The notes: generated from the letters alone by a model not told the origin. A stretch of DNA of 38,895 nt from Pirellulales bacterium (GCA_044346795.1 JBIIYN010000001.1:1-38895); one strand, 5' to 3'. Shown: positions 9,399 through 37,518, counted from the first letter of the stretch. Program-made: numbers and translations.

Positions 9399-9412
9399 GA
9401 ATCGGTCCTCCT

Positions 9413-11995: not shown

Positions 11996-12420
11996 TGGAA
12001 TCCTCCGTGTCACGAGGGTCTCCGTACCGGTGCAAACAGGATTCTTATAGTGTGACCTCAAACCGCTGGCCGCGAAACCCTTCGGCGGCTGATTCCCGGC
12101 CCCGTACCCCTCAACATTGTGGAAAAAGTGTCGTTTTTGCCTGCTGAATGATACTTGTTGCGATCGGAAGCCCCCCCGGGATCACCCCTGTTCGCCGTCC
12201 CGGGGATCACCTTCCTGGAGGGCGACTTCGGGCGTGCGGGAATATGGAGATGACTCCCTCTGGTTCGCTCCACTCAGATCCCTCTTTGGAAGCGGTGCTG
12301 TTGAAGGGGGGGTAGGTCAAGAACGCGGGCATGAAGCCGAAGCAGGACAAAAAGGCGCCCGCCGCCAAGAAGTAGGCAGATGGGTCGGGTTTCGTGCGCC
12401 GCGTTTCAACCGGGAATTCG

Positions 12421-12449
12421 TTGCGAGGGGCCATCGACCGGTCTATACT
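12421..12449 (+). promoter_or_regulatory. Candidate sigma70-like promoter TTGCGA-N17-TATACT, 8 nt upstream of the NPP start codon (possible leaderless mRNA)
   Basis: TTGCGA at 12421-12426, a 17-nt spacer, and TATACT at 12444-12449. ATG at 12458 has no Shine-Dalgarno-like purine run in between (cccgcagc). Pattern match only. Confidence 0.35.
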
Positions 12450-12457
12450 CCCGCAGC

Positions 12458-16823: not shown

Positions 16824-16853
16824 TGCCGACACCGCCGCTGTTGGAGGAAACCC

Positions 16854-19814: not shown

Positions 19815-22800
19815 GCACCTTTCGGAGCACCTCACGATCGGCCGCCGTCGTTCCCCGTCATTTCGCGTTTCGTCGCGGCTGTATCGTCGTCAGCGGCGGA
19901 CTGGCCCTCTTGATCGGCGGCGGCACGCTGCCGACGACGGCCCGTGCCGCCGGTCTCCCGGTCACGACCCCGAACCGCAAGGAGCCGGTGCGGTTCGGCG
20001 ACGAGATCGTGCCGCTGCTCGCGGCGAACTGCACCGCCTGCCACAACAAGACGCTCGCCGAGGGGGGGCTGTCGATGGAGTCGCTGGCGACGATGCAGAA
20101 AGGGGGCGACTCGGGCCCGGCGATCGCGGCCGGCAAGCCGGCGGAGAGCGTGCTCTTCCAGCGGGCGTCGCACCGGCAGGGGGACGCGATGCCCCCGGCC
20201 GACAACAAGGTCGGCGCGAAGAACCTCACGCCCGAGCAACTCGGGCTGCTCGAACGGTGGATCGCCGAAGGAGCCGGGGGCTCGGAGATCGTCGCCAAGC
20301 CGATCAACTGGCGGCCGCCGCCGAAGGGGATCGGAGGCGTGATCGCCGTGGCGATGTCGGCGGACGGCCAGCTCACCGCGGCGGCCCGGGGCGGCCGGCT
20401 GACGGTGTTCGACACGCAGAGCGGCACATCGCTGGCGACGCTCGTCGATCCCGCGCTCGCCGGGAGCGGGCCCGATCTCGCCCACGCCGACATCATCTCG
20501 AGCGCGGCCTTCTCACCAGCCGAGGACATGCTGGCGACCGGGTCGTACCGCACGATCAAGTTCTGGAAGCGGGCCGGCGTGCGGAAGTTCGCCGACGTGG
20601 CCGGCTCGGCCGGGGCGACCGGTGCCGTTGCCGCCCGTGCGGGCTCACCGGTCGCGGTGCCGCTCGCCGACGGGCGGGTGGCGATCGTCGACACGTCCGC
20701 CGCTGCGCCGGCGCTCGTGCGGACCGTGGGTGCGGCCGGACCGGCGGCCGTGGCCGTGGCGATCTCGGCCGATGGCGCGGTCGTCGCGGTCGCCGGCCAG
20801 GACAAGGCCGTCAGCCTTTGGCAGGTGGCCGATGGTGCGGCGGCCGGCCGGTTCACGAGGCCTGCTGACATCCGTTCGCTCACGTTCGCCGCCGGTGGCA
20901 AGCGGCTCGTGACGGCGGAGGCCGACGGCGTGCTGCGGGTGTGGGAATCGCCCGTCGCCGGCGGGGACCCTGCCGCCGTGAAGCCGATCAAGGAGATCCC
21001 GGGGGCGGCCCATCCCGTGGTCGGTCTCGCGGAACTGCCGGCGGCAGCCCCGCCGGCAGCGGCCGGTCAGCCCCCCGCGACGGCCCGGGCCGCGATCGTC
21101 GTCGGCGGCTGCGGCGACGGCGCCGTCAAGCTCTGGAACATCGACACCGGCGCGATGGTTCGGCAGGTCGCCCATGGCGGCGCCGTGGCCGGCGTCGCCG
21201 TGAGCCCGGATGGCAGCGTCATCGCCTCGGTCGGCGCGGTGCCGGGCGTGAAGCTTTGGAAGGCGGCCGACGGGGCGGCCATCGCGCACACGACCGGCGA
21301 CTTCCGAATCGCCGAGCGGCTCGCCCGAAAAGACGCCGACATCGCCGTCCTCAAGCGGGATGTCGAGCATGCGAAGGCGGAGGTGGCCGCGGCCGAAAAG
21401 GGGAAAAAGGCGGCGGCCGACGAGATCAAGAAGGCGACCGACAAGCTCGCGGCCGCGGAGAAGAATCTCAAGGAAAAGGAGACGCCGTTCCTCGCCGGGA
21501 AGATGGCTCGCGAGGACGCCGAGAAGCAGGCCGCGGCGGCGACCATGGCCGTCACGCAGGCCGAGGCGGCGGTCGCGGCGGCCACGAAGGGGGTGGAAGC
21601 CCTGCCGTCCGGCGCCGACGCCGCAGCGAAGGCCGGCCCGGAGCAGGCCCTCGCGAAGGCCAGGCGGGATCTGGACATGGCGAAGGCGAAGGCCGCGCCG
21701 CTCGTGGCGGCGGTGACCGCGAAGACCGAGGCAGAGAAGCCGCTCGCACAGGCATTCACCACCGCGCAGGCCGACGCGGAGCGGACCAAGCGGTTCGCGG
21801 ACGACGTGGCTGCCGAGGCCAGGAAGGCCGACGCCGCCGTGCCGGCCCGGCAGGCGGATCAGCAGGCCGCCGAGGCGAAACTGAAAACCGTGGAGGCCGA
21901 ACGGCCCCCGATCGAGGCCGAACTGAAGGCCTCCGCCCGGCCCTTCGCGGCCGTCGCGTTCTCGCACGACGGCACGACCGTGCTGGCCATCGACGCCGTG
22001 CCGAATGGAGCCGCGTGGAACGTCGTGGCGTTCAGCGGCAAGGATGGCCAGCCCCGGCGGTCGTTCCCGATGCCCCCGCAGTCCACGGCGATCGCCGCGG
22101 CCGCAGGTGGGCGGATCGTCACGGCCGGGGGGCCGGCGCAGGCCGTCGTCCACGATGCCGGTGAGAAGTGGGATCTCGTCCGCACGATCGGCGGCGAAAA
22201 GACACCCTCGGCGGCCGACGAGGATCCTGTCGGGCCTCCGCTGGATTGCGTCTTTTCGCTGGCGTTCTCGCCCGATGGCGCGACGCTCGCCTCCGGCAGC
22301 GGCCGCTCCAGCCGCAGCGGCGAGATCAAGCTCTGGAGGACGGCCGACGGGTCGCTCATCCGGTCGATCCGGCAGGCCCACTCCGACACGGTGGTCGCCC
22401 TCGCCTTCTCCCGCGACGGTACCCGGCTGGCCTCCGGCAGCACCGACCGGTTCGCCAGGATTCATCTGGTAGCCGATGGAAAGCGGGAGCGGTCGCTCGA
22501 AGGGCACACCGGCCACGTGCTCGGCGTCGCCTGGCAGGCCGACGGCCGGCGGCTCGTGACCGCCGGGGGCGACAACGTCGTGAAGGTCTGGAAGGTGGTG
22601 ACGACCACGCTGCACGAGGACCTGAAGTTCGCCGCCACCGACCCGGCCGAGCGGACGATCCAGGGTGCCACCCGGGAGGTGAGCGGGGTGAAGTTCCTCG
22701 GCGAAGGGGACGAATTCGTGGCCACCAGCGGCGACAAGTCGATCCGCGTCGTCAACGCGGCGACCGGCGTCGTCGTCCGATCGCTCGTCGGCGCGGGCGA

Positions 22801-22927
22801 CTTCGTCAGTGCGCTGGCCGTGTCGGGCCAACGCGTGGCCGCCGGCAGCCAGGACGGCCGGCTTGGCATCTGGAAGGCGACGGAGCCCAAGCAGCTCGTG
22901 ACGGTCGAACCGGCCGCCAAGCAATGA
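19811..22927 (+). CDS. Secreted PSCyt1 (CxxCH) + WD40 protein with central Ala-rich coiled coil, 1038 aa (arm B, gene 3; paralog of 3376-6474)
   Basis: ATG 19811 overlaps the upstream stop (ATGA), exactly as in arm A. NCTACHN is encoded at 20030-20044. WD40-like blades are LATGSYRTIKFWK, GCGDGAVKLWN, LASGSTDRFARIHL, GGDNVVKVWK and SQDGRLGIWK. Coiled coil at ~21300-21945. Confidence 0.92.
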   Translation: MSTFRSTSRSAAVVPRHFAFRRGCIVVSGGLALLIGGGTLPTTARAAGLPVTTPNRKEPVRFGDEIVPLLAANCTACHNKTLAEGGLSMESLATMQKGGDSGPAIAAGKPAESVLFQRASHRQGDAMPPADNKVGAKNLTPEQLGLLERWIAEGAGGSEIVAKPINWRPPPKGIGGVIAVAMSADGQLTAAARGGRLTVFDTQSGTSLATLVDPALAGSGPDLAHADIISSAAFSPAEDMLATGSYRTIKFWKRAGVRKFADVAGSAGATGAVAARAGSPVAVPLADGRVAIVDTSAAAPALVRTVGAAGPAAVAVAISADGAVVAVAGQDKAVSLWQVADGAAAGRFTRPADIRSLTFAAGGKRLVTAEADGVLRVWESPVAGGDPAAVKPIKEIPGAAHPVVGLAELPAAAPPAAAGQPPATARAAIVVGGCGDGAVKLWNIDTGAMVRQVAHGGAVAGVAVSPDGSVIASVGAVPGVKLWKAADGAAIAHTTGDFRIAERLARKDADIAVLKRDVEHAKAEVAAAEKGKKAAADEIKKATDKLAAAEKNLKEKETPFLAGKMAREDAEKQAAAATMAVTQAEAAVAAATKGVEALPSGADAAAKAGPEQALAKARRDLDMAKAKAAPLVAAVTAKTEAEKPLAQAFTTAQADAERTKRFADDVAAEARKADAAVPARQADQQAAEAKLKTVEAERPPIEAELKASARPFAAVAFSHDGTTVLAIDAVPNGAAWNVVAFSGKDGQPRRSFPMPPQSTAIAAAAGGRIVTAGGPAQAVVHDAGEKWDLVRTIGGEKTPSAADEDPVGPPLDCVFSLAFSPDGATLASGSGRSSRSGEIKLWRTADGSLIRSIRQAHSDTVVALAFSRDGTRLASGSTDRFARIHLVADGKRERSLEGHTGHVLGVAWQADGRRLVTAGGDNVVKVWKVVTTTLHEDLKFAATDPAERTIQGATREVSGVKFLGEGDEFVATSGDKSIRVVNAATGVVVRSLVGAGDFVSALAVSGQRVAAGSQDGRLGIWKATEPKQLVTVEPAAKQ
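21300..21945 (+). other. Ala/Lys/Glu-rich coiled-coil-like coding segment splitting the WD40 blocks (arm B)
   Basis: Encodes ..RLARKDADIAVLKRDVEHAKAEVAAAEKGKKAAADEIKKATDKLAAAEKNLKEKE....RQADQQAAEAKLKTVEAER.. at the same position as in arm A. Coordinates are approximate. Confidence 0.7.
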
Positions 22928-23167
22928 GGTCCCGGGCGATTGGGAGAAATTTTTGGCCAGCCCACGGCCCAGACGAACACTGTTTTCGCGTCATTTTTTG
23001 GCGTGATCGACCTTCCCGGCGGGGGCCTGAAACCATTTGACCGGATCGGTCATGAGAAACTAGGCTGTCGAGGTTCGATGTGCCGAATGAAATGGCGGCC
23101 TGGGGACGGATTTCAACAGCCCTCCGGATTGAATCCGCCGAAACCACGATCGCTGGAGAGTGCGCCC

Positions 23168-24520
23168 ATGCTGACCATCTCAGGACGTTCGACCGGCCGA
23201 TTCTGCGACGGCATGACCCGCCGCTCGATGCTGCAGATCGGCAGTCTGGGTGTCGGCGGCCTCACGCTGGGCGACCTGCTGCGAAACGATGCGCTGGCGT
23301 CCACGGGAGTGGCCGCAGGCCCGGCCCCGAAGGCCAAGTCGGTCATCAACATCATCCTCTTGGGCGGGATTTCCCACATCGACTCGTTCGACCTGAAGCC
23401 CGACGCCCCGAGCGAGATTCGGGGCGTTTTCCAGCCGATCCACACGAACGTGCCCGGGATCGACATCTGCGAACTCCTGCCGAAGGTCGCCCAGCACGCC
23501 GACAAGTTTTCGATCGTCCGGTCGATGCACGGCTTCGTCAACGAGCACACCGACAGCCAGGCCGATTCCGGCTGGCCGACGGCGGCCAAGCGACCCGGGA
23601 TCGGAGCGGTCGTGTCGAAGGTTCTCGGCCCGTCGGATGCCTGCCCCATCAGTTCGGTCTCGCTGGGCTCCACGTTCCTGCCCCGCGGTCCCCTGACTTC
23701 CCCGGGTTACCTCGGGAGTGAGTGGAAGGATTTCGAGCCGTTCGGCCCCGGCAATCCTGGCGGGCAGGCGCCGAAGATGTCCGACAGCCTGCAGATGAAT
23801 CTGCCGAAGGACCGGTTCGCCTCGCGGACGGAGCTGCTGTCCCGGCTCGAATCGCTTCAGCAGCGGATCGAGGGCCGGAGCGACTATTCCTCCGCCGACG
23901 CATTCACCAAGAAGGCGATGGACGTGGTGCTCAGCGGCTCGATGGCCGAGGCGCTCGACATCGAGAAGGAGTCGCCGAGGACTCTCGCAGCCTACGGCCT
24001 CGACAAGGGCCGCAACGGGCGACAGGTGTTCCTCATGGCCCGCCGGCTGGTCGAGGCCGGCGTCCGGGTCGTGACGACCGCGTTCGGCGCCTGGGACACG
24101 CACTACGACAACTTCGGCGAGATGAAGCGGAAGCTGCCCGACCTCGACATCGGCTTGAGCGGGCTCCTCTCGGACCTGCACGACCGCGGCATGCTCGAAG
24201 AGACGCTCGTGATCGTGACGACCGAGTTTGGCCGGGCGCCGCGGGTTGATGCCGGCAACGGCACGGGCCCCGGCCGCACCCACTGGCCGTCGGCCGGCAC
24301 GTTCCTCATCGCCGGCGGCGGCACGCGGATGGGGCAGGTGGTCGGCTCGACGAACCGGCTGGGCGAGATGCCAGAGAACGATCCCGTCCATCTGCAGGAG
24401 TTCTTCGCGACCGTGTACCGCCAACTCGGGATCGACGTGAACTCCGTCATGCTGCACGACACAGCCGGCCGTCCGCATGCCCTGGTCGATCACCGGCGGG
24501 TGGTCGAGGATCTGATCTGA
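23168..24520 (+). CDS. DUF1501 domain protein, 450 aa
   Basis: In frame with ORF 22940..24520. ATG 23168 lies 8 nt after GGAGAG. N-terminus MLTISGRSTGRFCDGMTRRSMLQIGSLGVGGLTL (Tat-like), then LLGGISHIDSFDLKP, EIRGVFQPIHTNVPGIDICE, WDTHYDNF, TEFGRAPRVD and STNRLGE. Confidence 0.9.
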   Translation: MLTISGRSTGRFCDGMTRRSMLQIGSLGVGGLTLGDLLRNDALASTGVAAGPAPKAKSVINIILLGGISHIDSFDLKPDAPSEIRGVFQPIHTNVPGIDICELLPKVAQHADKFSIVRSMHGFVNEHTDSQADSGWPTAAKRPGIGAVVSKVLGPSDACPISSVSLGSTFLPRGPLTSPGYLGSEWKDFEPFGPGNPGGQAPKMSDSLQMNLPKDRFASRTELLSRLESLQQRIEGRSDYSSADAFTKKAMDVVLSGSMAEALDIEKESPRTLAAYGLDKGRNGRQVFLMARRLVEAGVRVVTTAFGAWDTHYDNFGEMKRKLPDLDIGLSGLLSDLHDRGMLEETLVIVTTEFGRAPRVDAGNGTGPGRTHWPSAGTFLIAGGGTRMGQVVGSTNRLGEMPENDPVHLQEFFATVYRQLGIDVNSVMLHDTAGRPHALVDHRRVVEDLI

Positions 24521-24556: not shown

Positions 24557-25759
24557 TCAGCGGTCACCGGAGGTGGCCACGCCGGCGGCGCCCAGGCCCA
24601 TGACGCGGTATTCGTGGCCCGCGCTCCGCGGGTTGCGGTCGGCGAGGACCTCGAAGACCACGCGGTGTTTGCCGGGCGCGAGATCCCGGGCCAGCTGCTG
24701 CGTCCGGCGGTATCCGCCCCAGGTCATCTCGTACCAGGCGTCGCGGACCAGCGGCGGCCGGTCGTCGACCTGCATACGCACCATCCCCATCGGCCCGTTG
24801 ATGTGCCAGTCGTCGGCGAGGATGACGCGGCCCTCGATCTCGAAGGCGATGCGGCTGCCCGGGCGGTCGCTCCTCCACGAGCGGGTCTCGGGGTCGTAGG
24901 CCCAGCCGTCGTTGACGACCGGACGCAGGTCGGCGGCATCGACGAGCGACACGTGCTCGAAGAGATCTCCGAGGAGCGGCGGGGGGACGGCGGCCACCGG
25001 CGGAAGCCGGCCATCGTCAGGGAGCCGCCGCAGCAGCGGTTCGAGGGCGGCCGTGAGAAACCTGGCCGCGTAGGCATGGCCCCGGTCGTTCGGATGCACC
25101 TGATCGTCCTCCACGTCCTCCCACCTCAGGCGGCCCGCCTGGATCTCGGGCCACAGGGCGTCGCGCAGGCTCACCATCGGGAGCCCGTAGTGCCGGCCGA
25201 CCTTGCCGTGCCACTCCTGCGCGTTGCCGCCGTCGCGGTGCATCATGAACAGGAGCATGACCGCCGGCCGGCCGGGCTGCCGGAGGATCTGCCGCACGAG
25301 CCCCTCGAGCGTCTCCGCGCACGACTCGAGGTCAGGGTCGTTGACACCGTATTCCACCACCACGACGTCGGGCCGGTGGCCGAGGAGGTCCCGCCGGGCC
25401 CGGAGGGCCCCGTAGTTGGAGCCGGTGGCGCCGATGCCGGCGTTGACCAGCTCGATCCGCGACTTCGGAAACGTCTCCCGCCACCACCGGGCGAAGAGGT
25501 TGGCGTAGTTCTTCTCCTTCACGGAGGCCCTCGCGCCGGCCGTGATCGATCCGCCGATGACGGCGACGGTGACCGGCTCGCCGCGGCGGGCCTTCGCGAG
25601 GGCCTGGCAGAGCCGCGCCGGATCACCCGCCGCCACGAGGGAGCGGCCGACGATGTCGTCGTCGGTCTGGGCGGCCAGCCGCCGGTCGCCGGCGGGCGAG
25701 AGGAGGATGGCGGCCAGCAGGACGACGCCGGCGGGAAGGCGGTGCGGGATCGATCGCAT
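24557..25759 (-). CDS. Secreted SGNH/GDSL-type hydrolase with ~140-aa C-terminal extension, 400 aa
   Basis: This is the C-terminal 400 codons of the run-on ORF 24557..27499. ATG 25757-25759 lies 9 nt after GGAG. Signal peptide present. SGNH blocks are VAVIGGSITAG (block I Ser), NAGIGATGS (block II), VEYGVND (block III) and DDQVHPND (block V Asp..His). Confidence 0.85.
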   Translation of the reverse strand: MRSIPHRLPAGVVLLAAILLSPAGDRRLAAQTDDDIVGRSLVAAGDPARLCQALAKARRGEPVTVAVIGGSITAGARASVKEKNYANLFARWWRETFPKSRIELVNAGIGATGSNYGALRARRDLLGHRPDVVVVEYGVNDPDLESCAETLEGLVRQILRQPGRPAVMLLFMMHRDGGNAQEWHGKVGRHYGLPMVSLRDALWPEIQAGRLRWEDVEDDQVHPNDRGHAYAARFLTAALEPLLRRLPDDGRLPPVAAVPPPLLGDLFEHVSLVDAADLRPVVNDGWAYDPETRSWRSDRPGSRIAFEIEGRVILADDWHINGPMGMVRMQVDDRPPLVRDAWYEMTWGGYRRTQQLARDLAPGKHRVVFEVLADRNPRSAGHEYRVMGLGAAGVATSGDR

Positions 25760-26038
25760 GGGACGGGCTCCGTTGGTGTCGTCAGCCGCCGGGCGAGGCG
25801 GCCCGGCCATCCCGACGCCGGGGACGAGCATACCCGGGGCGGGGGCCTCGGGGGGTGGGGCCGGCCCGCCGGGCGGCGTCGGACCGCGGGATTTTCCGCG
25901 GGATACGGACCCTCGGCCCGCCGGCCGTAACATTTCGGCCGGCGCGGACATAATCTCTGGGAGAGAGCAGGTTTCGGGATGTCGCGGATCGTCCCGGCCC
26001 GTGGTCCCGAGAATCCGTTTCCTGCGAGGAGTCACGCC

Positions 26039-27430
26039 ATGCATCTGGCCCGCCGCACGCTCCTGAAGACGCTTCCTGCCGTCATGGTCTCTCCGTACGT
26101 GGCCCCGCTGGTGGCGCGGGCGGCGGCGGAGGCCGCGGGTGAGAAGCCGATGCGGTTCGTGTTTTTGGTGGAGGGGAACGGCCTCTGGCCCGAGCACACG
26201 TATCCGAAGGGTTTCAAGCGGAAGGAGATGAAGAACCCGCGGGGCGGCGACCATCACTTCGAGACGGTCAACGGGGAGGAGGATCTGATCGACCGGCCGT
26301 TGGGCGGTCCGGACGGTCAGTTGCCCGACGCGGTCGCGCCGCTGGAGAAGCATGTCTCGCGGCTGACGCTGCTGACGGGTCTGTCGGGCCGCGTGGCGGG
26401 CGGCGGCCACGGGAACGGCCACGGTGCGCTCGGAGCCTATCCGGCGGTGGCCGGTCCGAAGGACGTGACGATCGACTGCGCGTTGGCGAAGACGTCTCCG
26501 GCGATCCGCCAGATCGTGTCTCTGGGTTTCCAGAATGATCCGGCGAACGCGCCGTCGATGTTCCAGGGTTTTTCGGCGTACGGCCCCAATCAAAAGGTGT
26601 CGGTCATCCAGGATCCGGTGCTGGCGCACAAGGTTCTCTTCGGAAAGCTGGTGGGCGGCGATCCGAAGGGGGAGGTGGGTTCGCAGTCTCTGGTGCTCGA
26701 CGCGGTGGCGGAGGACATCCATCGGGTCAAGGGACTGTTGCCCGGCGAGGAGGGGCGGAAGCTGGAGCGGATGGCCGACGCGTTCGCGACGATCCGTCGG
26801 CGGCAGTCCCGTTTGGGCGAGATCGACCCGGGTCGGATTCCGGCGCTTCGTCCCGAGTTCCATGGCACCAAGTCCGAGACGACGCGGATGGAGGCGCACG
26901 TGGAGTTGGCGGCGACGGCGTTGCTGACGGGACTGACGAACGCTGTCACGCTCTGCTCGGGGACGGGGTATCCGACCTGGAAGAGCCTGGGGATCGATAT
27001 CGACACGCACTCGATCGGGCATCAGGCGAACGATCCGAAGGCGCAGGCGTTGCGGGTGAAGATCCGGCAGTTCAACGCCGGTCTGATCGCGAAGCTCGTC
27101 GACATGCTGGACTCGGTTCCGGAAGGTTCCGGAACGATGATGGACAACACCCTGATCGTGTACCTGAGCGACTCGGCCGAGACGCACCACTCCGTCTGCA
27201 TGGAGTGGCCGATGGTGCTGGTGGGCGACCTGGGCGGGCGGCTGAAGCTCGGCGGCAGGTTCATCAACGTGCCGAAGTACGGCTCGGCGGGCCACCGGAC
27301 GGTGGCGCAGTTCTACACGGCGCTGCTGCATGCGGCCGGGGCGCCGGTGAACCACTTCGGCATGAAGGATCGCTTCCTGCTGGAGGCGGGCCTCGACCAG
27401 CGGGAGCCCTGGACGCACGTGCTGGCCTGA
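26039..27430 (+). CDS. DUF1552 domain protein, 463 aa
   Basis: In frame with ORF 25979..27430. ATG 26039 lies 9 nt after GAGGAG. Tat-like MHLARRTLLKTLP, then FVFLVEGNG, THSIGHQ, LIVYLSDSAETHH and FYTALLHAAG blocks in the order expected for DUF1552. Confidence 0.85.
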   Translation: MHLARRTLLKTLPAVMVSPYVAPLVARAAAEAAGEKPMRFVFLVEGNGLWPEHTYPKGFKRKEMKNPRGGDHHFETVNGEEDLIDRPLGGPDGQLPDAVAPLEKHVSRLTLLTGLSGRVAGGGHGNGHGALGAYPAVAGPKDVTIDCALAKTSPAIRQIVSLGFQNDPANAPSMFQGFSAYGPNQKVSVIQDPVLAHKVLFGKLVGGDPKGEVGSQSLVLDAVAEDIHRVKGLLPGEEGRKLERMADAFATIRRRQSRLGEIDPGRIPALRPEFHGTKSETTRMEAHVELAATALLTGLTNAVTLCSGTGYPTWKSLGIDIDTHSIGHQANDPKAQALRVKIRQFNAGLIAKLVDMLDSVPEGSGTMMDNTLIVYLSDSAETHHSVCMEWPMVLVGDLGGRLKLGGRFINVPKYGSAGHRTVAQFYTALLHAAGAPVNHFGMKDRFLLEAGLDQREPWTHVLA

Positions 27431-27458
27431 TCCGGCCGCCGTCCATCGCGGGCCTGGA

Positions 27459-29735
27459 ATGGAGGGCGGAATGGAGAAGCGGATCGGCGGCCGTTTCATC
27501 GTGGTGCGGGGCGGCGGGGTGGCCCTTGCCGTGATGGCGATGCTGCTGCCCGCCGCGGCCCGCGGCGAGTTCCGGCATGCGCTCGTGATCGGGCAGTCGA
27601 CCTACAAGACCGGCACGCTCGCGGCGCCGTCCGGCGACGTGGCGGCGGTGGCCGGCGCCCTCGCGACGCAGGGCTTCACGGTCACCAAGGCCGAGAACCT
27701 GGCCACGGTGAAGGATCTCGGGGACGCGGTGCAGGCCTTCTCGAGGACGGTGCCGACGGGCGGCACGGCGCTGGTCTATTTCTCGGGCCACGCCATGACC
27801 ATGCCGGTGGCGACCGGCACGAATCCGCCGCGGAGCGACACGGGGCTCGTGGCGCTCGACGGCCGGCCACTGCCGCTGGCCGCCGTGCTGAGGCCACTGG
27901 TCGTGCCGGCCTACGCGCCGTACGGCCACGGCTGGCCGGGAGTCGTGAGCGGCAGCAGGATCAACGTCGTGATCCTCGACGCGGTTCCGCCGCCCACCCC
28001 GGCGACGCCGGCTGGAACGCCGTCCGTCTCCGGCACGGCCGCGCCGACCGTGGATCTGCTCGCCGACTCGTTCGTGGTGCTCCGGCCGGCCGATGCCGCC
28101 GGGGCCACCGCCGGGCCGTCGCCACTGGCCGGCAAGCTCGCGGCGGCGGTCGCCGCGGGGCGGACGCTCGACGCCACGCTCGCGGTCCTTTCCACCGGCA
28201 CGATGTCGTCGTTGGCCGCGGGGGAACTCGCGCGGCTGGCAGCCCCGGCGTCGAGGGCCGTGTCGCCCCCCGACACGCTCGCGGCCGGCACCAAGGCGGG
28301 GGAGGAGTGGGTGGACAAGCACGGCATCGTCTTCTGCTGGTGCCCGCCGGGAGGCTTCACGATCGGCAGCCCGCCGACCGAGCCCGAGCGGCAGAAGGAC
28401 GAGTCGCGGGCGGCGGTGTCGTTCGCCGAGGGCTTCTGGATGGCGAAGCACGAACTCTGCTACCGCGAGTGCCTGCCCCTGGGGGCGGCGGCCTTCATGG
28501 CCTCGGGCAGGCACAAGCTCCATCCCCTGAACATGGTGCCCGATCTCACGAAGCCGCTCGCGACGGCCAACGCCTCCGCGCCGGCCGGCTGGGAGTATGG
28601 CCTGCCGACGGAGGCCGAGTGGGAATATGCGGCCCGCGCCGGCACGAACACGCCCTACTCGTTCGGCGACGATCCGGCCGACCTCGCCCGGCACGGCAAC
28701 TTCGCCGACAAAACGCTGCGGGAGGGCGACGTGCGGAGCGAGGCCAGCAGCGGCAGCGGCGACCGACAGACGGGCATCTTCGCCTACGCCCACCCGACGT
28801 GGAGCGACTCGAGCGCCACGATGGCCCGGGTGGGCAGCTACCTGCCGAATCCCTGGGGCTTGTGCGACATGCACGGCAACGTGGCGGAGATGACGAGCAC
28901 CACCTACGACGTCGTCAGGCTGGTGCCGTACGTGCCGGCCGAGAAGCGGGCGGAGTGGGAGGCCCGGCCCGACACCAAGAAACGGTACGGCAACGGCGCC
29001 GTCCACAAGGGCGGCAGTTGGGCGAGCGTCCCCGGCTCCTGCCGCTCGGCGTTCCGTGGCCTCTCCGCGGGCGGGGAACGGATCCAGGGCGTGCGGCTGG
29101 TGCTGCGGCGGAAGGCCACGGCGGTGCCGCCGCCGCCCACCCGGTGGACGCCGCTGGTGCCGACCGCGGTCGCGACGAGCGGCGGCGCGACGGCGACGCC
29201 GTCCCCCGACGGCACGGTGCTCGTCTCGGGCACCGCCGTCGCGGGCGACACCTACACGGTCACCTGCCCGGTGCCCGGCGGCATCGAGCCGCTCGCGGTC
29301 AAGCTCGAGGCGCTCGGCGATCCGTCGCTGCCCAAGCAGGGGCCGGGACGCGCCGGGGACGGCGGCTTCTGGATCGCCGAGGTCGCCATCACCGCGGATC
29401 GTGGCGGCGCGACGGCGGCGATCACGCCGCTCGACGTGCGGTCGGACCTGCCGAGCCCGCCGGCCGGCCATCTCCTCGACGGCAAGCCCGAGACGGCCTG
29501 GGGCGGCGGCGGCGGCAAGCCGTACGAGGTCGTCTTCACGATCGGCCTGCCGTCCCGGACGGGCCATGACGCCGCCCAGTGGCGGTACCCGATCGAGAGC
29601 CTGAAGCAGGGACCGCCGTCCCCGATCACGCTCACGATCGCCCATCGCAAGGATGGCCCGGCGACGCTCGGAAAGTTCCGCATTTCGGCGCTCCACGAGG
29701 AGCCCGCCGCCGCCCGTCAGGAGACCGCGCGATGA
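27459..29735 (+). CDS. Secreted fusion: caspase-like (peptidase C14) domain lacking the catalytic Cys + FGE/SUMF1-like domain lacking the Cys pair + C-terminal GPGR..LGKFRIS module, 758 aa
   Basis: ATG 27459; an alternative ATG 27471 lies 5 nt after GGAGGG. C14-like blocks are HALVIGQSTYK...ALVYFSGHA...VVILDAV. FGE-like blocks are FCWCPPGGFTIGSP, LPTEAEWEYAARAGT, NPWGLCDMHGNVAEM, KGGSWAS and GVRLVLRR. The C-terminal ~205 aa carry LPKQGPGRAGDGGFWIAE..DGKPETAW..LGKFRISAL. Confidence 0.85.
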   Translation: MEGGMEKRIGGRFIVVRGGGVALAVMAMLLPAAARGEFRHALVIGQSTYKTGTLAAPSGDVAAVAGALATQGFTVTKAENLATVKDLGDAVQAFSRTVPTGGTALVYFSGHAMTMPVATGTNPPRSDTGLVALDGRPLPLAAVLRPLVVPAYAPYGHGWPGVVSGSRINVVILDAVPPPTPATPAGTPSVSGTAAPTVDLLADSFVVLRPADAAGATAGPSPLAGKLAAAVAAGRTLDATLAVLSTGTMSSLAAGELARLAAPASRAVSPPDTLAAGTKAGEEWVDKHGIVFCWCPPGGFTIGSPPTEPERQKDESRAAVSFAEGFWMAKHELCYRECLPLGAAAFMASGRHKLHPLNMVPDLTKPLATANASAPAGWEYGLPTEAEWEYAARAGTNTPYSFGDDPADLARHGNFADKTLREGDVRSEASSGSGDRQTGIFAYAHPTWSDSSATMARVGSYLPNPWGLCDMHGNVAEMTSTTYDVVRLVPYVPAEKRAEWEARPDTKKRYGNGAVHKGGSWASVPGSCRSAFRGLSAGGERIQGVRLVLRRKATAVPPPPTRWTPLVPTAVATSGGATATPSPDGTVLVSGTAVAGDTYTVTCPVPGGIEPLAVKLEALGDPSLPKQGPGRAGDGGFWIAEVAITADRGGATAAITPLDVRSDLPSPPAGHLLDGKPETAWGGGGGKPYEVVFTIGLPSRTGHDAAQWRYPIESLKQGPPSPITLTIAHRKDGPATLGKFRISALHEEPAAARQETAR

Positions 29736-31702
29736 CCTTCCGCATCCCGTCAATCGTCCTGCTCGCCATCGTGGCCGCGGCGCCGCCGGCGGCCGCGGCA
29801 CCGGCGGCGATCGGCCCCTGGCTCGCGAAGCACTGCGGCGAATGCCACGCGGGCGGGTCGCAGGAGGGAGACCTGTCGCTCGAGGGCGTGGCCGGGTTCG
29901 ACGACCTCAAGCCCGAGGCGTGGGCCAGCGTGCACGAACAGTTGCAGCTGACGCTGATGCCGCCGGCCGACGCGGCGCAGCCGACGGCGGAAACGCGTGC
30001 CGACATGCTTGCCTGGATCGCCGGCTCGATGCGGGCGGCGGGGCATCACGTGGTCGACAAGCTCGCGCTTCCCAACTACGGCAACTACGTGCCCCACGAG
30101 CCGCTCTTCCGCGGACCCGCGCATCCGGCGCCGGCGACGCCGGCCCGGGTCTGGCGGGTGCGGCCCGACGTCTACGAGAGCCGCGTGGGCGGCATCCAGC
30201 CGTTCGCGTTCCTGCCGGGGCAGCAGATCGCGGACTACGCCAGCCTCTACGAACTGGATGATTCGGCGGCCGAGGTCGTGCTCTCCAACGCCCAGGCCCT
30301 GGCGGAGACCTGGGTGACGGGACAGTTCAAGGCCTTGCTCGATCCGAAGACGGAGCCGGCCGCGGCGGCGATCGACGGGGCGGTGAATCAGGCGTTCCGC
30401 AAGGCGCTGGGCCGCGGACCGACGACCGACGAGGCGGAACGGTGCCGCGGAATCTATGCGAAGGTGCTCGCGGCGCATGGCCGCGAGCGGGCGGTGCGGG
30501 CGGCCGTGGTCTATCCCTTCCTGCAGCCGGAGGCCTACTACCGGCTGGAGATCGGGGTCGGCGAGCCCGACGAGCACGGCCGACGGCGGCTTTCCAAGGA
30601 GGCGATCGTGTTCGCCATCCAGCAGACGCTCTCCGGCGACAGGCGGCCCCCCAGGCTCGTCGCCGTGCTCGCGGACGGCAAGGCGACGCTCGGCACGAGG
30701 GCGGACGTGGCGGCGGTCGTCCACGACGTGCTCGCCGGGGAGCCGGCGGGCGGCGTGAACGGCCGGTTGCTGCGGTTCGTCGACGAATACTTCGACTACC
30801 GCAAGGCGGCGGACGTCTTCAAGGAGCCGAAGGTGCCGATCGCCGGAGTGTTCGCGGCCGGCACCCTCGTGCGGGACACGTCCCGGCTTCTCCACCGGAT
30901 CCTGGCGGAGGATCGCGACGTCTTTCGGAGGCTGCTCACCACCCGCGAGGCCTTCCTCGAAGGCCGCGGCGAGGCCCCGATCTACAACCTGCCGCCCGAC
31001 CTCAAGCTGGTGGACGGAAGGTTCGAGGCCGTGGTCCGCGGCCTGTCCCCGGACCCCGCGGTCGACGGCCTGGTGACGCTCGATCCCGCAGTCCGCTGCG
31101 GCATCCTCACGCAGCCGGCCTGGCTCGTGGCCCACTCCGGCAACTTCGACAACGATCCGGTCCGCCGCGGCAAGTGGGTGCTCGAGCACCTGCTCGGCGG
31201 CACGGTGCCCGACGTGCCCGTCACGGTCTGTGCGGTCGTGCCGGAGGACCCCGCGAAGACGCTCCGCGAGCGGTTCAGCATGGTGCGGGACGACGCCTAC
31301 TGCTGGAAGTGCCACCGCCGCATGAACCAGCTCGGCATGCCGTTCGAGATCTACGAGCACTTCGGCAGGCACCGCACGCGGGAGCTGGAGAAGCCGGTCG
31401 ACTCCTCCGGTGCCGTGGTGGACAGCGGCGACCCGTCGCTCGACGGCCCGGTGCAGGACGCCATCGAGCTGATCGAGAGGCTCGCGGCCTCGCGGCGGGC
31501 GGAGGAGATGTTCGTGCGTTACGCGTTCCGCTTCTTCCTGGGCCGCAACGAGACGCTCCGCGACGCGGCCACGCTCCGCGAGGCCCACGCGGCCTTCGTG
31601 GCGTCCCAGGGCAGCCTGAAGGCTCTCGTCGCCGCGCTGCTCGCCAGCGACTCCTTCCTCTACCGGGTCGCCGAGGCCCCGCCCGTCACGGCAGTTCCGT
31701 GA
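29732..31702 (+). CDS. PSCyt3 / DUF1592-DUF1588-DUF1585-type protein (usual partner of DUF1552), 656 aa
   Basis: In frame with ORF 29579..31702. ATG 29732 overlaps the upstream stop (ATGA). Signal peptide, N-terminal CGECH, a later CWKCHRRMNQLGMPFEIYEHFGR (DUF1588-like), and a C-terminal FVRYAFRFFLGR...LLASDSFLYR (DUF1585-like). Confidence 0.85.
   Translation: MTFRIPSIVLLAIVAAAPPAAAAPAAIGPWLAKHCGECHAGGSQEGDLSLEGVAGFDDLKPEAWASVHEQLQLTLMPPADAAQPTAETRADMLAWIAGSMRAAGHHVVDKLALPNYGNYVPHEPLFRGPAHPAPATPARVWRVRPDVYESRVGGIQPFAFLPGQQIADYASLYELDDSAAEVVLSNAQALAETWVTGQFKALLDPKTEPAAAAIDGAVNQAFRKALGRGPTTDEAERCRGIYAKVLAAHGRERAVRAAVVYPFLQPEAYYRLEIGVGEPDEHGRRRLSKEAIVFAIQQTLSGDRRPPRLVAVLADGKATLGTRADVAAVVHDVLAGEPAGGVNGRLLRFVDEYFDYRKAADVFKEPKVPIAGVFAAGTLVRDTSRLLHRILAEDRDVFRRLLTTREAFLEGRGEAPIYNLPPDLKLVDGRFEAVVRGLSPDPAVDGLVTLDPAVRCGILTQPAWLVAHSGNFDNDPVRRGKWVLEHLLGGTVPDVPVTVCAVVPEDPAKTLRERFSMVRDDAYCWKCHRRMNQLGMPFEIYEHFGRHRTRELEKPVDSSGAVVDSGDPSLDGPVQDAIELIERLAASRRAEEMFVRYAFRFFLGRNETLRDAATLREAHAAFVASQGSLKALVAALLASDSFLYRVAEAPPVTAVP
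31686..31702. other. 17-nt inverted repeat TCACGG-cagtt-CCGTGA containing the stop codons of both convergent genes
   Basis: TCACGG (31686-31691) is the exact reverse complement of CCGTGA (31697-31702). TGA at 31700-31702 ends the plus-strand gene, and TCA at 31686-31688 is the minus-strand TGA. Confidence 0.6.
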
Positions 31703-32354
31703 TCCGGATGTTGCGGTAGCGGACCGTGCCGACCATCTTGCCGTGGATCTGCAGGGCGATCACGCCCTGCCGCGGGATCGAGTCGTCGGGCTCGACGTAG
31801 TCGACCGTCTCCACGCCGTTGATCGAGAGCCGCACCCGCGCGCCCTCGCAGCGGATCACGTACTCGTTCCAGCCGTCCTTCGCCTTCGCCAGCGCCGCGG
31901 CCACGGCCTCCGGGGCCGCCGTGGCGAGCAGCCGCTTCCGCCGGCTCTCGTCGTAGAGCGAGCCGTCCCAGCCGGGCCCGATGTCGGCCTGGTAGCCGAT
32001 CACCTCGTGGTGGTCGGGAATCCGCTCCGTGCGGAACTGCACACCCGCATTGCCCTCCTTGGTGAAGTCGAGCTTGTATTCCAGCCGCAGTTCGAAGTCG
32101 CCAAACCGGCGGTTCGTCGCCAGGAACTCGTTCCGCGGGGCGGGCCGCCCGGCGTCGCCGGCGACGATCGCCTTGTCCTCGATCCGCCAGGTGCCGGCCG
32201 TGTCGCCGTTCCAGCCGGTGAACGTCGTGCCGTCGAAGAGCGATTCCGCGGCGGCGGCCGCCGGGGCGACCGCGAGCAGGAGGACGCCGAGGGCGGCCGC
32301 GACGGGCCATGGCGGCAGGTGGGCGGCGAGCTTGGGCTGGGGAGCGGAGTTCAT
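31686..32354 (-). CDS. DUF1080 (3-keto-disaccharide hydrolase-like, jelly-roll) secreted protein, 222 aa
   Basis: Full ORF with ATG 32352-32354 and a signal peptide. Blocks are LFDGTTFTGWNG..WRIEDKAIV, FGDFELRLEYK, NAGVQFR, GYQADI, GWNEYVIRCEGARVRLSINGV and IALQIHG. Confidence 0.85.
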   Translation of the reverse strand: MNSAPQPKLAAHLPPWPVAAALGVLLLAVAPAAAAAESLFDGTTFTGWNGDTAGTWRIEDKAIVAGDAGRPAPRNEFLATNRRFGDFELRLEYKLDFTKEGNAGVQFRTERIPDHHEVIGYQADIGPGWDGSLYDESRRKRLLATAAPEAVAAALAKAKDGWNEYVIRCEGARVRLSINGVETVDYVEPDDSIPRQGVIALQIHGKMVGTVRYRNIRITELP

Positions 32355-32492
32355 GGGAATTCGATCCTCGCGGGGAAGGGGAGCCGCCGGGGGCGTGGCG
32401 TTACCTGTCTGACCTCTGGTCTTTTATACTGCGAGAAAACGGTGCCGTCAGCAGGCGTGGGGCGATTCGTCTGTTCCCGTCTTCGCCGCGAG

Positions 32493-33314
32493 TCACTTCG
32501 CAGCCGCTTCCGCGGGCGGCGGTTCGGGAATGGTGAGGGCCACGCGGAAACCCCAGTGATTCTGCGGGCGGAACGGGGGCCAGCCGTAGGCGTCGCTGCC
32601 GCGGGCCGCCGACTGTCCGTACCCGGCGGAATGCCGGAAGCTGCCCCCGCGGATGACCCGCTCGGAGCCTTCGGCCGGCCCCTGCGGATCGGTCGCGGCG
32701 GCGGCTTCGTAGGGACTGAAGAAGTCGTTGCACCACTCCCAGACATTCCCGTGCATGTCGTGAAGCCCCCACGGATTCGGCTTCCTCTTGCCGACGGGCT
32801 GCGTCTGGGCCTGCGAGTTGTCGACGAACCACCCGTAGTCTGCAAGTTGCTTCCAATCGTCGCCGAACGGGTAGAGCGTCTTCGTGCCCGCCCGGCAGGC
32901 ATACTCCCACTCCGCTTCGGTCGGGAGCCGGTACACCCGCCCCGCCTTCTTCTCCTCTGGCAGTCCCGACAGCGCCTTGCAGAACCCTGCCGCCTGCCCC
33001 CAGTCCACCGTATCCACCGGACGGTCGGGTTCTTTCCACGTGCTCGGCTCGGACTTCGAGACCGCCTTCCACTGGGCGTTGGTGACCTCGTGCATGCCGA
33101 GGAAGAAGGGCTTCGTGATCCGCACGCGGTGGACCGGCCCGGCATACCGGGTCGCGAGTCCGTTGTCGGCATGCCCCATGTCGAACTCCCCTGCGGGAAT
33201 CTTCACGAGTTTCATGCCGATCGAGTTTTCCAGCACCTCAGGGGACTGCTGGGCCCGGGCGACGAGGCATGCACCCGCGATCCACATCACCGCCGCGATC
33301 GTCACGTTTCGCAT
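32493..33314 (-). CDS. Secreted FGE/SUMF1-like domain protein without the catalytic cysteines, 273 aa
   Basis: In frame with ORF 32493..33365. ATG 33312-33314 lies 9 nt after GAGGAG. Blocks are MKLVKIPAGEFDMG, HEVTNAQW, YRLPTEAEWEYACRAGT, NPWGLHDMHGNVWEW, IRGGSF and GFRVAL. Confidence 0.88.
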   Translation of the reverse strand: MRNVTIAAVMWIAGACLVARAQQSPEVLENSIGMKLVKIPAGEFDMGHADNGLATRYAGPVHRVRITKPFFLGMHEVTNAQWKAVSKSEPSTWKEPDRPVDTVDWGQAAGFCKALSGLPEEKKAGRVYRLPTEAEWEYACRAGTKTLYPFGDDWKQLADYGWFVDNSQAQTQPVGKRKPNPWGLHDMHGNVWEWCNDFFSPYEAAAATDPQGPAEGSERVIRGGSFRHSAGYGQSAARGSDAYGWPPFRPQNHWGFRVALTIPEPPPAEAAAK

Positions 33315-33578
33315 CGCCGAAGGCTCCTCGTGAACGGACGGAGTCCGGTTCCAAGACGATACCATGACGGCTGATTTTTCCGAAGTCGGCTAACCCCCCC
33401 GGGGCCGTCACGACGGGACGACGGGCGACGAGCCGGTTTTTCGGCGGTTGGGGACGAAAGAGCGTTGATCCGGACGCCGGCGTCCACCGAGCACCCACCG
33501 TTTTCCCAGCGGAGCATGACTTCGTGCCGGCGCTGTTCGCGACGTCCCGACCAGCACGCGGAGACCACGCCGCGCCGG

Positions 33579-35882: not shown

Positions 35883-36002
35883 ACCCTCCTACCCCCTTGG
35901 TACAAAGAATTCCAGGCGTTCGCATCCCAGCAGAGTAATTCGATGATGCATCGCAACCGCTGCAACCCGGGTCGAAGGTGCTCCGTGGTGCCTTGCTTGC
36001 GG

Positions 36003-36552
36003 ATGGGCCATGCGATCGTGGTCTTGATGGTCGTGCTCGTGGCGACCGTGCTTGCGGCGGCGCCGGCTTCCTCCGCCGAGGCGAGCAAGCCCGCGGGGCT
36101 CGACACGTCGACGGCCGCCTTCTTCCAATCCCACTGCGTTCGCTGTCACAACGCGGACACGGCTGAGGCTGAGTTGCGGCTCGACCGGCTCGACGCCGAC
36201 CTCGACCGTGCCGACGTCTTCGCCCGTTGGCAAAGAATCGTCCAACGCCTGCGGGCCGGCGAGATGCCGCCTCGAGAGGAACCGCAGCCGACCGCCGCGG
36301 AGCGAACGGCGGCGATCGACGTTCTCGATGCCCAGCTGAAGGCCGTTTCGACACGCCGCCGACAGTCGGGCCGGGTGGTGCTCCGCCGTCTCAATCGCGT
36401 CGAATACCAGAACACCCTCAACGACCTGTTCGCCGTCGATGTGGACATCCAGGATCTGCTGCCCGAAGACACGGTGGCACTCGGCTTCGCAATACGGCCT
36501 GCGGTCGCTGGTGCATGAGGTGGTGCAGTCGAAACTGTTTGCAACCAAGTAG
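36003..36552 (+). pseudogene. Collapsed PSCyt3/DUF1587...DUF1585-type gene: N-terminal ~165 codons joined out of frame to the last 18 codons
   Basis: The N-terminal part (frame of ORF 35943..36518) has a signal peptide, FFQSHCVRCHN, MPPREEPQPT and RRLNRVEYQNTLNDLFAVDV..LLPED...GF. Around 36490-36496 the reading switches frame. From 36496 the sequence GLRSLVHEVVQSKLFATK-stop (stop 36550-36552) looks like a family C-terminus. The next gene starts 10 nt later behind GGAG, as in an intact pair. Intact relatives are 650-1000 aa. Confidence 0.65.
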
Positions 36553-36562
36553 GAGTCGAACG

Positions 36563-37518
36563 ATGAAGACTTTTGGGCTTGCGCGGCGGTCGTTCCTGCG
36601 GGCCGGCGGCGTCACGATGGCCCTGCCCCTGCTCGAGGCGATGTCGCCGCGGCGGCTCCTAGGCGGCGAAGCCGCCGCGGCGCCGCGCCGCATGGTGCTC
36701 GTCTGCACGCCGCTGGGGCTGCACACGGAGTATCTGAACCCGAAGCAAGCGGGGCGGGATTACGAGCCGACGCCGTATCTCGACGTGATCAAGGAGTTTC
36801 GTGACGACTTCACCGTGTTTTCGGGCCTCTCGCATCCCGAGAGCAATGGTGGGCACGGCGGCGAGCTGACCTTCGTGACCGGTGCCCGGGTTACGGCGCC
36901 TGGCAGCTTCAAGAACACCATGTCGCTCGATCAAGCCGCGGTCGAGAAGCTGAGTCCCGACACGCGGTTCAAGTCGCTCTCCCTGTCCACCGGCGCCGGC
37001 GCCGTGAACACCAAGAGTCTGTCGTGGACGGCCAACGGCGTGAACATTCCCGCCGAGGATCGGCCCTCGCAGCTGTTCCAGCGGATGTTCGTCACCGGCA
37101 CGCCCGCGGAGATCGCGACCCAGGTGCAGCGGCTGAAGCAGGGCGAAAGCATCATGGATGCCGTGCTGCAAGAGGCCAATGCATTCCAAAACAAGCTCGG
37201 CGGCCGCGATCGCGAGAAGCTCGACGAATACTTCACCGCCGTCCGCGAGGTCGAGCAGCGGCTCGTCTCCGGGCAGGAGTGGGCGACGCGTCCGAAGCCG
37301 AAAGTGGAGGCAACGCCGCCAGCAGCCACGACAGCCGGAACCTGCCGGTCGTGGTCGCCGGCGGCGGATTCCGGCACGGGCAGCACCTGGCCTTCGATCC
37401 GAGCAAGCACCCGCCGCTGTGCAACCTCTACGCGCAGTTTCTCCGGCGGCTCGGTGCCGACGTGAACGGGTTTTCGACCAGCACGGCCGCGTCGCTGCCG
37501 GGCTTCGAGATGGCGTAA
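36563..37518 (+). pseudogene. DUF1552 gene with internal deletion and frameshift (junction ~37300-37310)
   Basis: ATG 36563 opens with MKTFGLARRSFLRAGG (Tat-like), then VLVCTPLG, FSGLSHP and ..EYFTAVREVEQRL..WATRPKPKVE in frame 2. The family C-terminus GGNAASSHDSRNLPVVVAGGGFRHGQHLAFD...PLCNLYAQFLRRLG..GFSTSTA.LPG continues in frame 1 to the stop at 37518. About 130-150 aa of the middle (present in 26039-27430) are missing. Confidence 0.7.

Follow-up and report, generated by a model that had tools for sequence, protein, structure and literature searches.

A three-gene DUF1552, caspase/FGE-fold fusion and PSCyt3 module in a Pirellulales bacterium and in other Planctomycetota and Verrucomicrobiota

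Organization and conservation of the three genes

A 38,895 nucleotide (nt) stretch of DNA from a Pirellulales bacterium (GCA_044346795.1 JBIIYN010000001.1:1-38895), referred to here as the window, carries three genes arranged head to tail on the same strand. The first, at 26039-27430 (+), codes for a 463 amino acid (aa) DUF1552 protein, designated D, and its open reading frame (ORF) extends from 25979. The second, at 27459-29735 (+), encodes F, a 758 aa fusion of a Peptidase_C14 (C14) domain with a fold of the formylglycine-generating enzyme (FGE) type, identified from the Pfam C14 and FGE-sulfatase matches and an AlphaFold2 (AF2) model. The third, at 29732-31702 (+), encodes P, a 656 aa PSCyt3/PSD2 protein identified with Pfam. 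The original prediction had placed D first and P last with a caspase-FGE fusion gene inserted between them. All three family assignments exceeded the Pfam gathering thresholds, and the gene order, the 28 nt gap between D and F and the tetranucleotide ATGA (29732-29735, +), in which the stop codon of F overlaps the start codon of P, can be read directly in the sequence. AGGAGA precedes the start codon of P. The window has a G+C content of about 70% and is planctomycete-type DNA.

The loci used for comparison included 66 that were added by a metagenome scan with a sub-alignment of the caspase-like half of F, giving 157 mapped loci in all. D, P and the three domains of F were mapped on these loci with local hidden Markov models (HMMs) and dereplicated at 90% identity. 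The caspase-like and C-terminal profiles were cut from the curated alignment; iterated versions drifted to about 170 matches in high-GC ORFs. There were 44 clusters of F at 90% identity, and D and/or P was directly adjacent to F in 34 of them. The order D-F-P was found in 13 clusters, D-F-P-D in one, P-D-F in nine and F-P-D in five, and six more were partial at contig ends (F-P or D-F). F was classed as alone in ten clusters, five of which were distant outgroups and two of which were cut within about 300 nt upstream; of the others, one had P-D after a 1.6-kb insertion, one had a divergent D-P and one (L117) was a true exception. In the control, a genome scan of generic FGE-domain loci, a DUF1552 neighbor was found at 0 of 80, so the linkage of F to its partners is beyond chance.

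The closest family gene on the 5' side of F was D, and on the 3' side P, in all loci. The three orders D-F-P, P-D-F and F-P-D are rotations of one cycle, a regularity that was not treated as significant because only about 3-4 independent rearrangements lie beneath it. Only about half of the complete modules have F in the middle; in the others it comes after (P-D-F) or before (F-P-D) an intact canonical P-D pair, so that an insertion between the two partners is not a rule. What the window shows is better seen as a three-gene cassette in one of its rotations, an arrangement that is usual in its clade and not a singular event.

A protein search with F gave about 100 homologues with the same architecture; about 45 were full-length three-domain relatives (40-69% identity), many others were two-domain proteins of about 520 aa, and nearly all were C14+FGE. 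The relatives of F that are flanked by D and P were 25-69% identical to it and came from Planctomycetota and Verrucomicrobiota. Context look-ups showed D-F-P in a Gemmataceae metagenome-assembled genome (MAG), a JGI contig and an ENA contig, and F-P at the cut end of a Verrucomicrobiota contig. An ATGA or GTGA overlap of the F stop and P start codons was present in 16 of the 22 dereplicated modules in which F and P are adjacent, with a distance of 6 nt or less in three more, and 4-nt overlaps of D and F were found in public gene calls at two loci. Translational coupling kept at such divergence is typical of subunits made in a fixed ratio, and by this analogy the conserved overlap suggests that F and P are such subunits.

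Neighbor-joining trees, which carry no support values, were constructed for F and D. Gene order was clade-specific in the F tree: the clade of the window was entirely D-F-P, with or without the third domain of F, the neighboring grade was P-D-F, and a third clade had F-P-D at its base and a derived D-F-P group. The D tree mirrored the F tree, its sub-clades matching the gene order, and the D proteins linked to F formed one clade on a long branch from the generic DUF1552 proteins met by chance in the same loci. An exhaustive profile search returned 9,206 DUF1552 representatives at 50% identity, of which the top 60-90 or so resembled the F-linked subfamily, which therefore makes up, as a rough estimate, 1% of DUF1552 diversity. 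Adjacency, overlap and mirrored trees together support the earlier suggestion that F is produced with D and P as a third partner.

Module genes were repeated at two loci, L119 (D-F-P-D) and L111 (P-D-F ... D-F-P), and tandem duplication could have been the route to the rotated orders. At two other loci (L142:493-6042 and L144:2271-9113), related F genes adjoined D and P genes of the generic type, one of the P proteins being 1,397 aa long; at L142 the D-P pair and F are transcribed divergently, from different strands. In these trees without support values, the two loci may represent partner swapping.

The cultured bacterium Lignipirellula cremea has two modules, P-D-F (at about 597-615 kb of CP036433.1) and F-P-D. 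In the second (L157:3642-11250; CP036433.1, 247836-261509), the genes for an extracytoplasmic function (ECF) sigma factor, a FecR/WD40 anti-sigma factor, F, P and D follow one another on one strand, with a 4-nt overlap between the anti-sigma gene and F. This arrangement, together with the two-component genes upstream of two other modules, raises the possibility that F is a regulator or sensor, for example in an ECF-sigma route governing the D-P pair, and not a structural subunit. However, the regulatory genes were not conserved neighbors, none being present at the window or at L001, L004 and L007, and the coupling of F to P suggests an equimolar output that is more subunit-like than regulator-like. 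A regulatory role was considered improbable.

Sequence and predicted structure of the DUF1552 and PSCyt3 proteins

D matched the HXXSHH/DUF1552 profile (PF07586) with 115.1 bits, against a cut-off of 30, over profile positions 1-306 of 307. Translated from the start at 26039, D begins with MHLARRTLLK, a twin-arginine signal with R5 and R6 at nt 26051-26056, and the arginine pair was invariant in 60 homologues of D. The eponymous H-x-x-S-H-H motif is replaced by H324-S-I-G-H328-Q in the window. The position of the serine was Gly in 30 of 31 F-linked D proteins, and the last histidine was Gly or variable, while generic D proteins in the same alignment retained HxxSH(H). Judged from this alignment, the loss of the motif is subfamily variation that is compatible with membership of DUF1552. 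The features private to the F-linked D proteins are VEGNG, GLSGR, HxxGH in place of HxxSHH, SDSAExHH, an extra invariant His419 and a C-terminal insertion with an invariant Asp444.

A search of the Protein Data Bank (PDB) with the D sequence gave no match, and NCBIfam had no model for D or P. The AF2 model of D had a mean predicted local distance difference test score (pLDDT) of 89. The best 19 PDB matches found with Foldseek all belonged to the alkaline phosphatase superfamily, although they were weak (E 7.5e-4 to 0.3, TM score about 0.2-0.34); they included S1 sulfatases, choline sulfatase, arylsulfatase A, LtaS-type enzymes, phosphoglycerate mutase, MCR-1 and phosphonoacetate hydrolase. The invariant residues S116, H124, D146, H324, H328, H383, H384 and H419 follow predicted strands. 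The invariant Ser, His and Asp residues appear to be placed in the model like the metal ligands and the nucleophile of the alkaline phosphatase superfamily.

The PSCyt and PSD domains reportedly go back to work by Studholme in 2004. In P, PSCyt3/DUF1588 (90 bits) and PSD2/DUF1585 (45 bits) were above the Pfam cut-offs, and there was a weak N-terminal match to cytochrome c. Both domains were present in all 28 relatives of P. Of the other domains that the original prediction listed for the PSCyt3 partners of DUF1552 proteins, DUF1592 (PSD4) and DUF1587 (PSD3) had no Pfam match in window P. PSD5 (DUF1595) scored 16.7 bits, under its cut-off of 34.2. Among the relatives, at E<=0.001, PSD5 was found in 24 of 28, PSD4 in 23 of 28 and PSD3 in none. 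P has a signal peptide and two CxxCH motifs, C35-H39 (nt 29834-29848) and C524-H528 (nt 31301-31315), both of which were invariant in the 28 relatives; the N-terminal motif was present in all 38 unique P proteins linked to a module. P is probably a di-heme c-type protein with helical PSD regions.

The fusion protein and a model of the module

F is predicted to be an exported protein in which a signal peptide is followed by a caspase-like p20 domain, an FGE-fold domain and, at the C-terminus, a β-sandwich domain. The N-terminus, inspected by eye, has a hydrophobic signal-like segment and no lipoprotein cysteine. The AF2 model had a pLDDT of 89.7 and a predicted TM score of 0.89, the latter indicating, at the level of the model, a rigid multi-domain body, and its fold matches in Foldseek were PvdO, FGE and MALT1.

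The caspase-like (pseudo-orthocaspase) domain at 27564-28268 (+) was assigned from Pfam and from a profile alignment with MALT1. Peptidase_C14 matched aa 39-116 with 32.2 bits (cut-off 21.4), Foldseek returned MALT1, caspase-9 and GSU0716, and the comparison of the F profile with MALT1 (E = 1e-10) placed family columns on the catalytic His and Cys. The residues at these positions in the window are H111 (27789-27791) and V176 (27984-27986), a His/Val pair. The His-Cys dyad was intact in only one of 73 relatives of F. The family consensus was Tyr/Cys, with the His-to-Tyr replacement in 49 of the 73, and both positions vary freely within the window's own clade, in agreement with the published pseudo-orthocaspase pattern (PMC3501461, PMC6426788). 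One could suppose that the three genes share an inherited order without functional coupling, or that F is an active caspase-type protease with unrelated targets, since operon membership alone is no proof of joint function and the window F keeps the dyad histidine. However, Val takes the place of the catalytic Cys in the window and an intact dyad is a rare exception elsewhere, adjacency has been retained through at least three rearrangements and at F identities as low as about 25-30%, and the trees of D and F are congruent, all of which makes either version very unlikely. The PADLOC defense models gave a marginal generic caspase match for F (E = 2e-4) and none for D or P, and a role of F as an anti-phage defense caspase was rejected on this result.

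The FGE-fold domain (28296-29108, +) was recognized by Pfam, PDB sequence and fold matches and is PvdO/PorK-like. FGE-sulfatase matched aa 296-548 with 85.6 bits (cut-off 23.3), and Foldseek with the F model returned the human, T. curvata and S. coelicolor FGEs at E of about 1e-8. The nearest PDB sequences were PorK/GldK and PvdO and the nearest fold was PvdO, with a TM score of 0.71-0.73, ahead of the true FGEs. The NCBIfam equivalog cut-offs were missed by a wide interval, 58.6 versus 350 bits for GldK and 44.2 versus 500 bits for PvdO. By these scores F is closest to PvdO and PorK/GldK and a member of neither family.

The position of the first FGE cysteine is occupied in F by S523 (29025-29027), while the second cysteine is kept as C528 (29040-29042). 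When the segment that we take to be human FGE, GGSYMCHRSYC, is set without gaps against GGSWASVPGSC of F, S523 corresponds to Cys336 and C528 to Cys341. The first cysteine was Ser in 73 of 73 relatives and the Ser/Cys pair was found in 72 of them. The copper-binding cysteine pair of FGE is therefore absent from F. This result bears on the idea that F is a maturase of D, carrying out an FGE-like modification of a sulfatase-like protein. The idea draws on the sulfatase/alkaline phosphatase superfamily fold modeled for D and on the presence of an FGE-fold gene as its constant neighbor. Set against these are the Ser/Cys pair, the lack of a positionally conserved (C/S)xPxR motif, looked for in 38 unique sequences each of D and P, the twin-arginine translocation (Tat) signal of D, which implies export in the folded state, versus the Sec-type signal of F, and the roughly 99% of DUF1552 diversity that has no F-type partner. 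Maturation of D by F was rejected as very improbable on the missing cysteine, the absent CxPxR motif and the Tat/Sec mismatch.

The C-terminal domain (29142-29708, +; aa ~560-750) was delimited with the local HMM and the AF2 model, in which it is an all-β sandwich. The local HMM matched the clade of the window only, and Pfam gave no match to this domain even at E<=1. A PDB profile search returned sub-threshold matches (E 0.09-1) concentrated on F5/8-type-C and CBM32 domains. The domain may be discoidin/CBM32-like, a call that is tentative because these matches are sub-threshold and Pfam was empty.

The caspase and FGE folds of the original prediction thus stand. As annotation labels the two names mislead, since each canonical active site is degenerate and F is probably neither a caspase nor an FGE in function. 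The residues of F do not support the annotation formylglycine-generating enzyme required for sulfatase activity; the other label in current use is SUMF1/EgtB/PvdO family nonheme iron enzyme. F is a clear example of a protein whose caspase and FGE folds no longer carry their canonical chemistry, which is of consequence for automatic annotation.

We propose that the three genes encode one extracytoplasmic three-component module in which F is the obligate third subunit and acts by binding rather than by catalysis, a reading to which we assign a probability of roughly 0.55. D would be the catalytic subunit, exported folded by the Tat route, metallo-hydrolase-like and with an alkaline phosphatase/sulfatase superfamily fold, its invariant His and Asp residues lying at the ends of the core strands. 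P would be exported by the Sec route and serve as the heme partner, with two c-type heme motifs followed by the PSD5, PSD4, PSCyt3 and PSD2 regions. F, also a putative Sec substrate, would be a scaffold built of two former enzyme folds, the caspase-like domain without a working His-Cys dyad and the FGE/C-type lectin-like domain without the copper-binding cysteine pair, to which the clade of the window would add the discoidin-like β-sandwich. Its task would be that of an adaptor or of substrate recognition, through docking to D and, with the tightest contact, to P, to which it is translationally coupled. The use of an FGE fold for a structural purpose has a precedent in PorK/GldK, a ring subunit of the type IX secretion system (T9SS). 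Another precedent is the fusion, in DUF1501 modules, of PSCyt proteins to carbohydrate-binding domains (PMC3542564).

Several observations weigh against this proposal, 1) many residues of F are invariant, among them C293, C295 and one FGE cysteine, C528, so non-canonical chemistry is possible, 2) PvdO, the best structural match of F, is a dehydrogenase (dihydropyoverdine dehydrogenase) in the NCBIfam naming, 3) proteins in which PSCyt1 is fused to an FGE domain could hint at a redox role in place of a purely structural one, 4) the trees of F and D are neighbor-joining trees without support values, 5) the Foldseek scores behind the assignment of D to the alkaline phosphatase superfamily are weak (best E 7.5e-4, TM about 0.3), 6) L117, a member of the family, has no partner of the subfamily type nearby and 7) more distant C14-FGE proteins (L012, L145, L149, L150 and L158) are not linked to D or P.

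The fusions in the third point are single proteins with one or two PSCyt1 domains and an FGE-sulfatase domain, found at five unrelated loci (L069:9122-10846, L072:7861-9744, L089:9059-10846, L044:5820-7244 and L080:692-2164) in MAGs of Verrucomicrobia, Planctomycetaceae and Bryobacteraceae; four of the five were confirmed with Pfam and L089 was found with the local HMM only. Their domain content suggests a fusion link, of the Rosetta-stone type, that connects the FGE fold of F with the type of heme domain that P has.

The main rival explanation is that F is a non-canonical enzyme, either a PvdO-like periplasmic oxidoreductase or a thiol enzyme that uses Cys528, and exchanges electrons with the two c-type hemes of P; the module would then be a redox-coupled enzyme system in place of a hydrolase with an adaptor. 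The PvdO fold match and the PSCyt1-FGE fusions favor it, as do the conservation of Cys528 in 72 of 73 relatives and of C293 and C295, which are invariant or nearly so, the invariance of both CxxCH motifs of P and the fact that F and P are the translationally coupled pair. On the other side, F scores far under the PvdO and GldK cut-offs, no cofactor-binding motif was identified in it, and its FGE copper site is incomplete. The FGE-fold domains of EgtB and PorK, moreover, serve as binding or structural modules. We regard an enzymatic F of this kind as possible but rather unlikely. A more elaborate version, in our judgment somewhat less likely again, starts from the Ser/Cys pair, which is the state of the C336S substrate-trapping mutant of human FGE: in a periplasmic complex of a new kind, F would capture or oxidize a substrate by means of its one conserved cysteine, electrons would pass to the two c-type hemes of P and the product would be handed to D, here taken as an alkaline phosphatase superfamily enzyme. 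If such a redox complex existed, the PSCyt1-FGE fusions would be a compact version of the same wiring, and a first biochemical function would be at hand for the abundant gene pairs of the planctomycete-specific cytochromes.

Flanking genes and comparison with known systems

On the 5' side, the canonical PSCyt3-type neighbor is not found upstream of the window D, P being located downstream of F; a GDSL/SGNH hydrolase gene on the minus strand (24557-25759, -) lies there instead, recognized from the frame of third-position G+C (GC3), the translation and Pfam. D therefore opens the transcription unit. The divergent spacer of about 280 bp between the two genes (25760-26038), delimited by the GC3 frame and translation, is the probable promoter region of the three-gene unit. 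It has a sigma-70-like match at 25927-25954 (+), the sole one in 25500-32600, which is weak evidence. The GDSL gene was concealed within a 980-aa mechanical ORF (24557-27499), and a plus-strand ORF at 24614-25930 was dismissed as a gene on GC3 phase, the true gene being on the minus strand. On the 3' side, a convergent 3-keto-disaccharide hydrolase/DUF1080 gene (31686-32354, -; Pfam E = 6.6e-41) overlaps the end of P by 17 nt and marks the boundary, lying outside the module. Beside it is a stand-alone FGE-sulfatase-domain gene (32493-33365, -) that lacks both FGE cysteines (GGSFRHSAGYGQSAAR). DUF1080, GDSL and more FGE-domain genes also occurred near the module in L008 and L096-L103. In a Verrucomicrobia MAG, one ORF of about 1,160 aa (L068:6216-9695) consists of four tandem FGE-sulfatase domains.

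The window also contains a decayed canonical P-D pair for comparison (36003-37518, +; P fragment from 35943), which was seen in Pfam and in a three-frame translation, with the 10-nt gap originally described. Pfam matched PSCyt1 and PSD3 on 35943-36518 and HXXSHH on 36227-37465. The P gene retains its PSCyt1+PSD3 N-terminus, has a large internal deletion, and its last 15 or so codons, corresponding to a PSD2-type C-terminus, are out of frame. Its TAG stop codon is followed by the 10-nt gap and the DUF1552 gene (MKTFGLARRSFL...), which is frameshifted and internally deleted and has lost the HxxSHH region.

Few gene families have expanded as much in Planctomycetes and Verrucomicrobia as the DUF1552/PSCyt3 and DUF1501/PSCyt1-2 pairs. 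These have been called attractive targets (Kamneva 2012, PMC3542564), and PSCyt3 genes have been described as adjoining a family of unknown genes, with a function that is wholly unknown (He et al. 2017, PMC5615132). A subfamily with a fixed third partner offers a concrete handle on such pairs, a predicted three-protein complex that occurs twice in the cultured L. cremea, for which a complete genome is available. The module also ties a heme protein, P, to an FGE-fold domain, a connection that is echoed by the independent PSCyt1-FGE fusions. The original prediction had allowed that this arrangement might prove common and already annotated. It is common within the subfamily. The literature searched, however, yielded no account of a C14-FGE gene as the third member of a DUF1552/PSCyt3 module, and databases name the module proteins only DUF1552 domain-containing or SUMF1/EgtB/PvdO family.

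The combination of C14 with FGE-sulfatase is a recurrent architecture (Asplund-Samuelsson et al. 2012, PMC3501461), and pseudo-orthocaspases, among which His-to-Tyr is the commonest substitution, are known (PMC3501461; Klemencic et al. 2019, PMC6426788). The same papers view the orthocaspase-FGE fusion as a possible protease plus FGE and report no link to DUF1552/PSCyt3. Like these fusions, F has a p20-type C14 domain followed by FGE-sulfatase, and Tyr for His is its family consensus. In F, by contrast, the caspase and FGE sites have both degenerated, and what defines the family is its linkage to D and P.

F resembles PvdO and PorK/GldK in that it lacks the FGE cysteine pair and would work outside the cytoplasm, where PorK is a structural ring subunit. 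Unlike them, it has no lipoprotein cysteine, has extra domains, and has no T9SS or pyoverdine genes nearby. The module is also like an FGE-sulfatase pair, since an FGE-fold gene adjoins the gene for a predicted sulfatase-like fold, D. It differs from such pairs in that 73 of 73 relatives have Ser at the Cys336 position, D carries no CxPxR motif, and D is a predicted Tat substrate.

The DUF1501/PSCyt1-PSCyt2-PSD1 modules have extended forms that include a four-gene cluster with PPC and WD40 domains (Kamneva et al. 2012, PMC3542564). Two paralogous four-gene DUF1501 modules are present in the window, at 3376-12061 (-) with 1644-3326 (+) and at 14334-24520 (+), each with PSCyt2/PSD1+Big_2, PPC-domain, PSCyt1+WD40 and DUF1501 genes; in the first, three of the genes share a strand and the DUF1501 gene is convergent with them. 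Between the two modules there is another alkaline phosphatase superfamily gene, for a type I phosphodiesterase/NPP (12380-14080, +; Phosphodiest, E = 1.8e-21). A DUF1501/WD40/PSCyt2 cluster lies divergently upstream in the second L. cremea locus, L157. The D-F-P module is like the DUF1501 modules in combining a predicted Tat-exported protein, a candidate member of the alkaline phosphatase superfamily, with a large cytochrome-motif protein and, in some lineages, with accessories rich in interaction domains. It differs from them in its DUF1552 core and in an accessory with pseudo-caspase and FGE folds in place of PPC and WD40.

The closest known systems are the canonical DUF1552/PSCyt3-PSD pairs of Planctomycetes and Verrucomicrobia, with which the module shares the same families, the Tat signal of D, the cytochrome c motifs of P and the close adjacency of the genes. 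Unlike the canonical pairs, it has F as an obligate neighbor and its D and P belong to a distinct subfamily, P lacking PSD3/DUF1587 (28 of 28) and the F-linked D having HxxGHx, extra invariant histidines and the C-terminal insertion; in the clade of the window, moreover, D comes first and P last. The D-F-P module, not previously described in the literature searched, extends a known, still unexplained system with a third gene.

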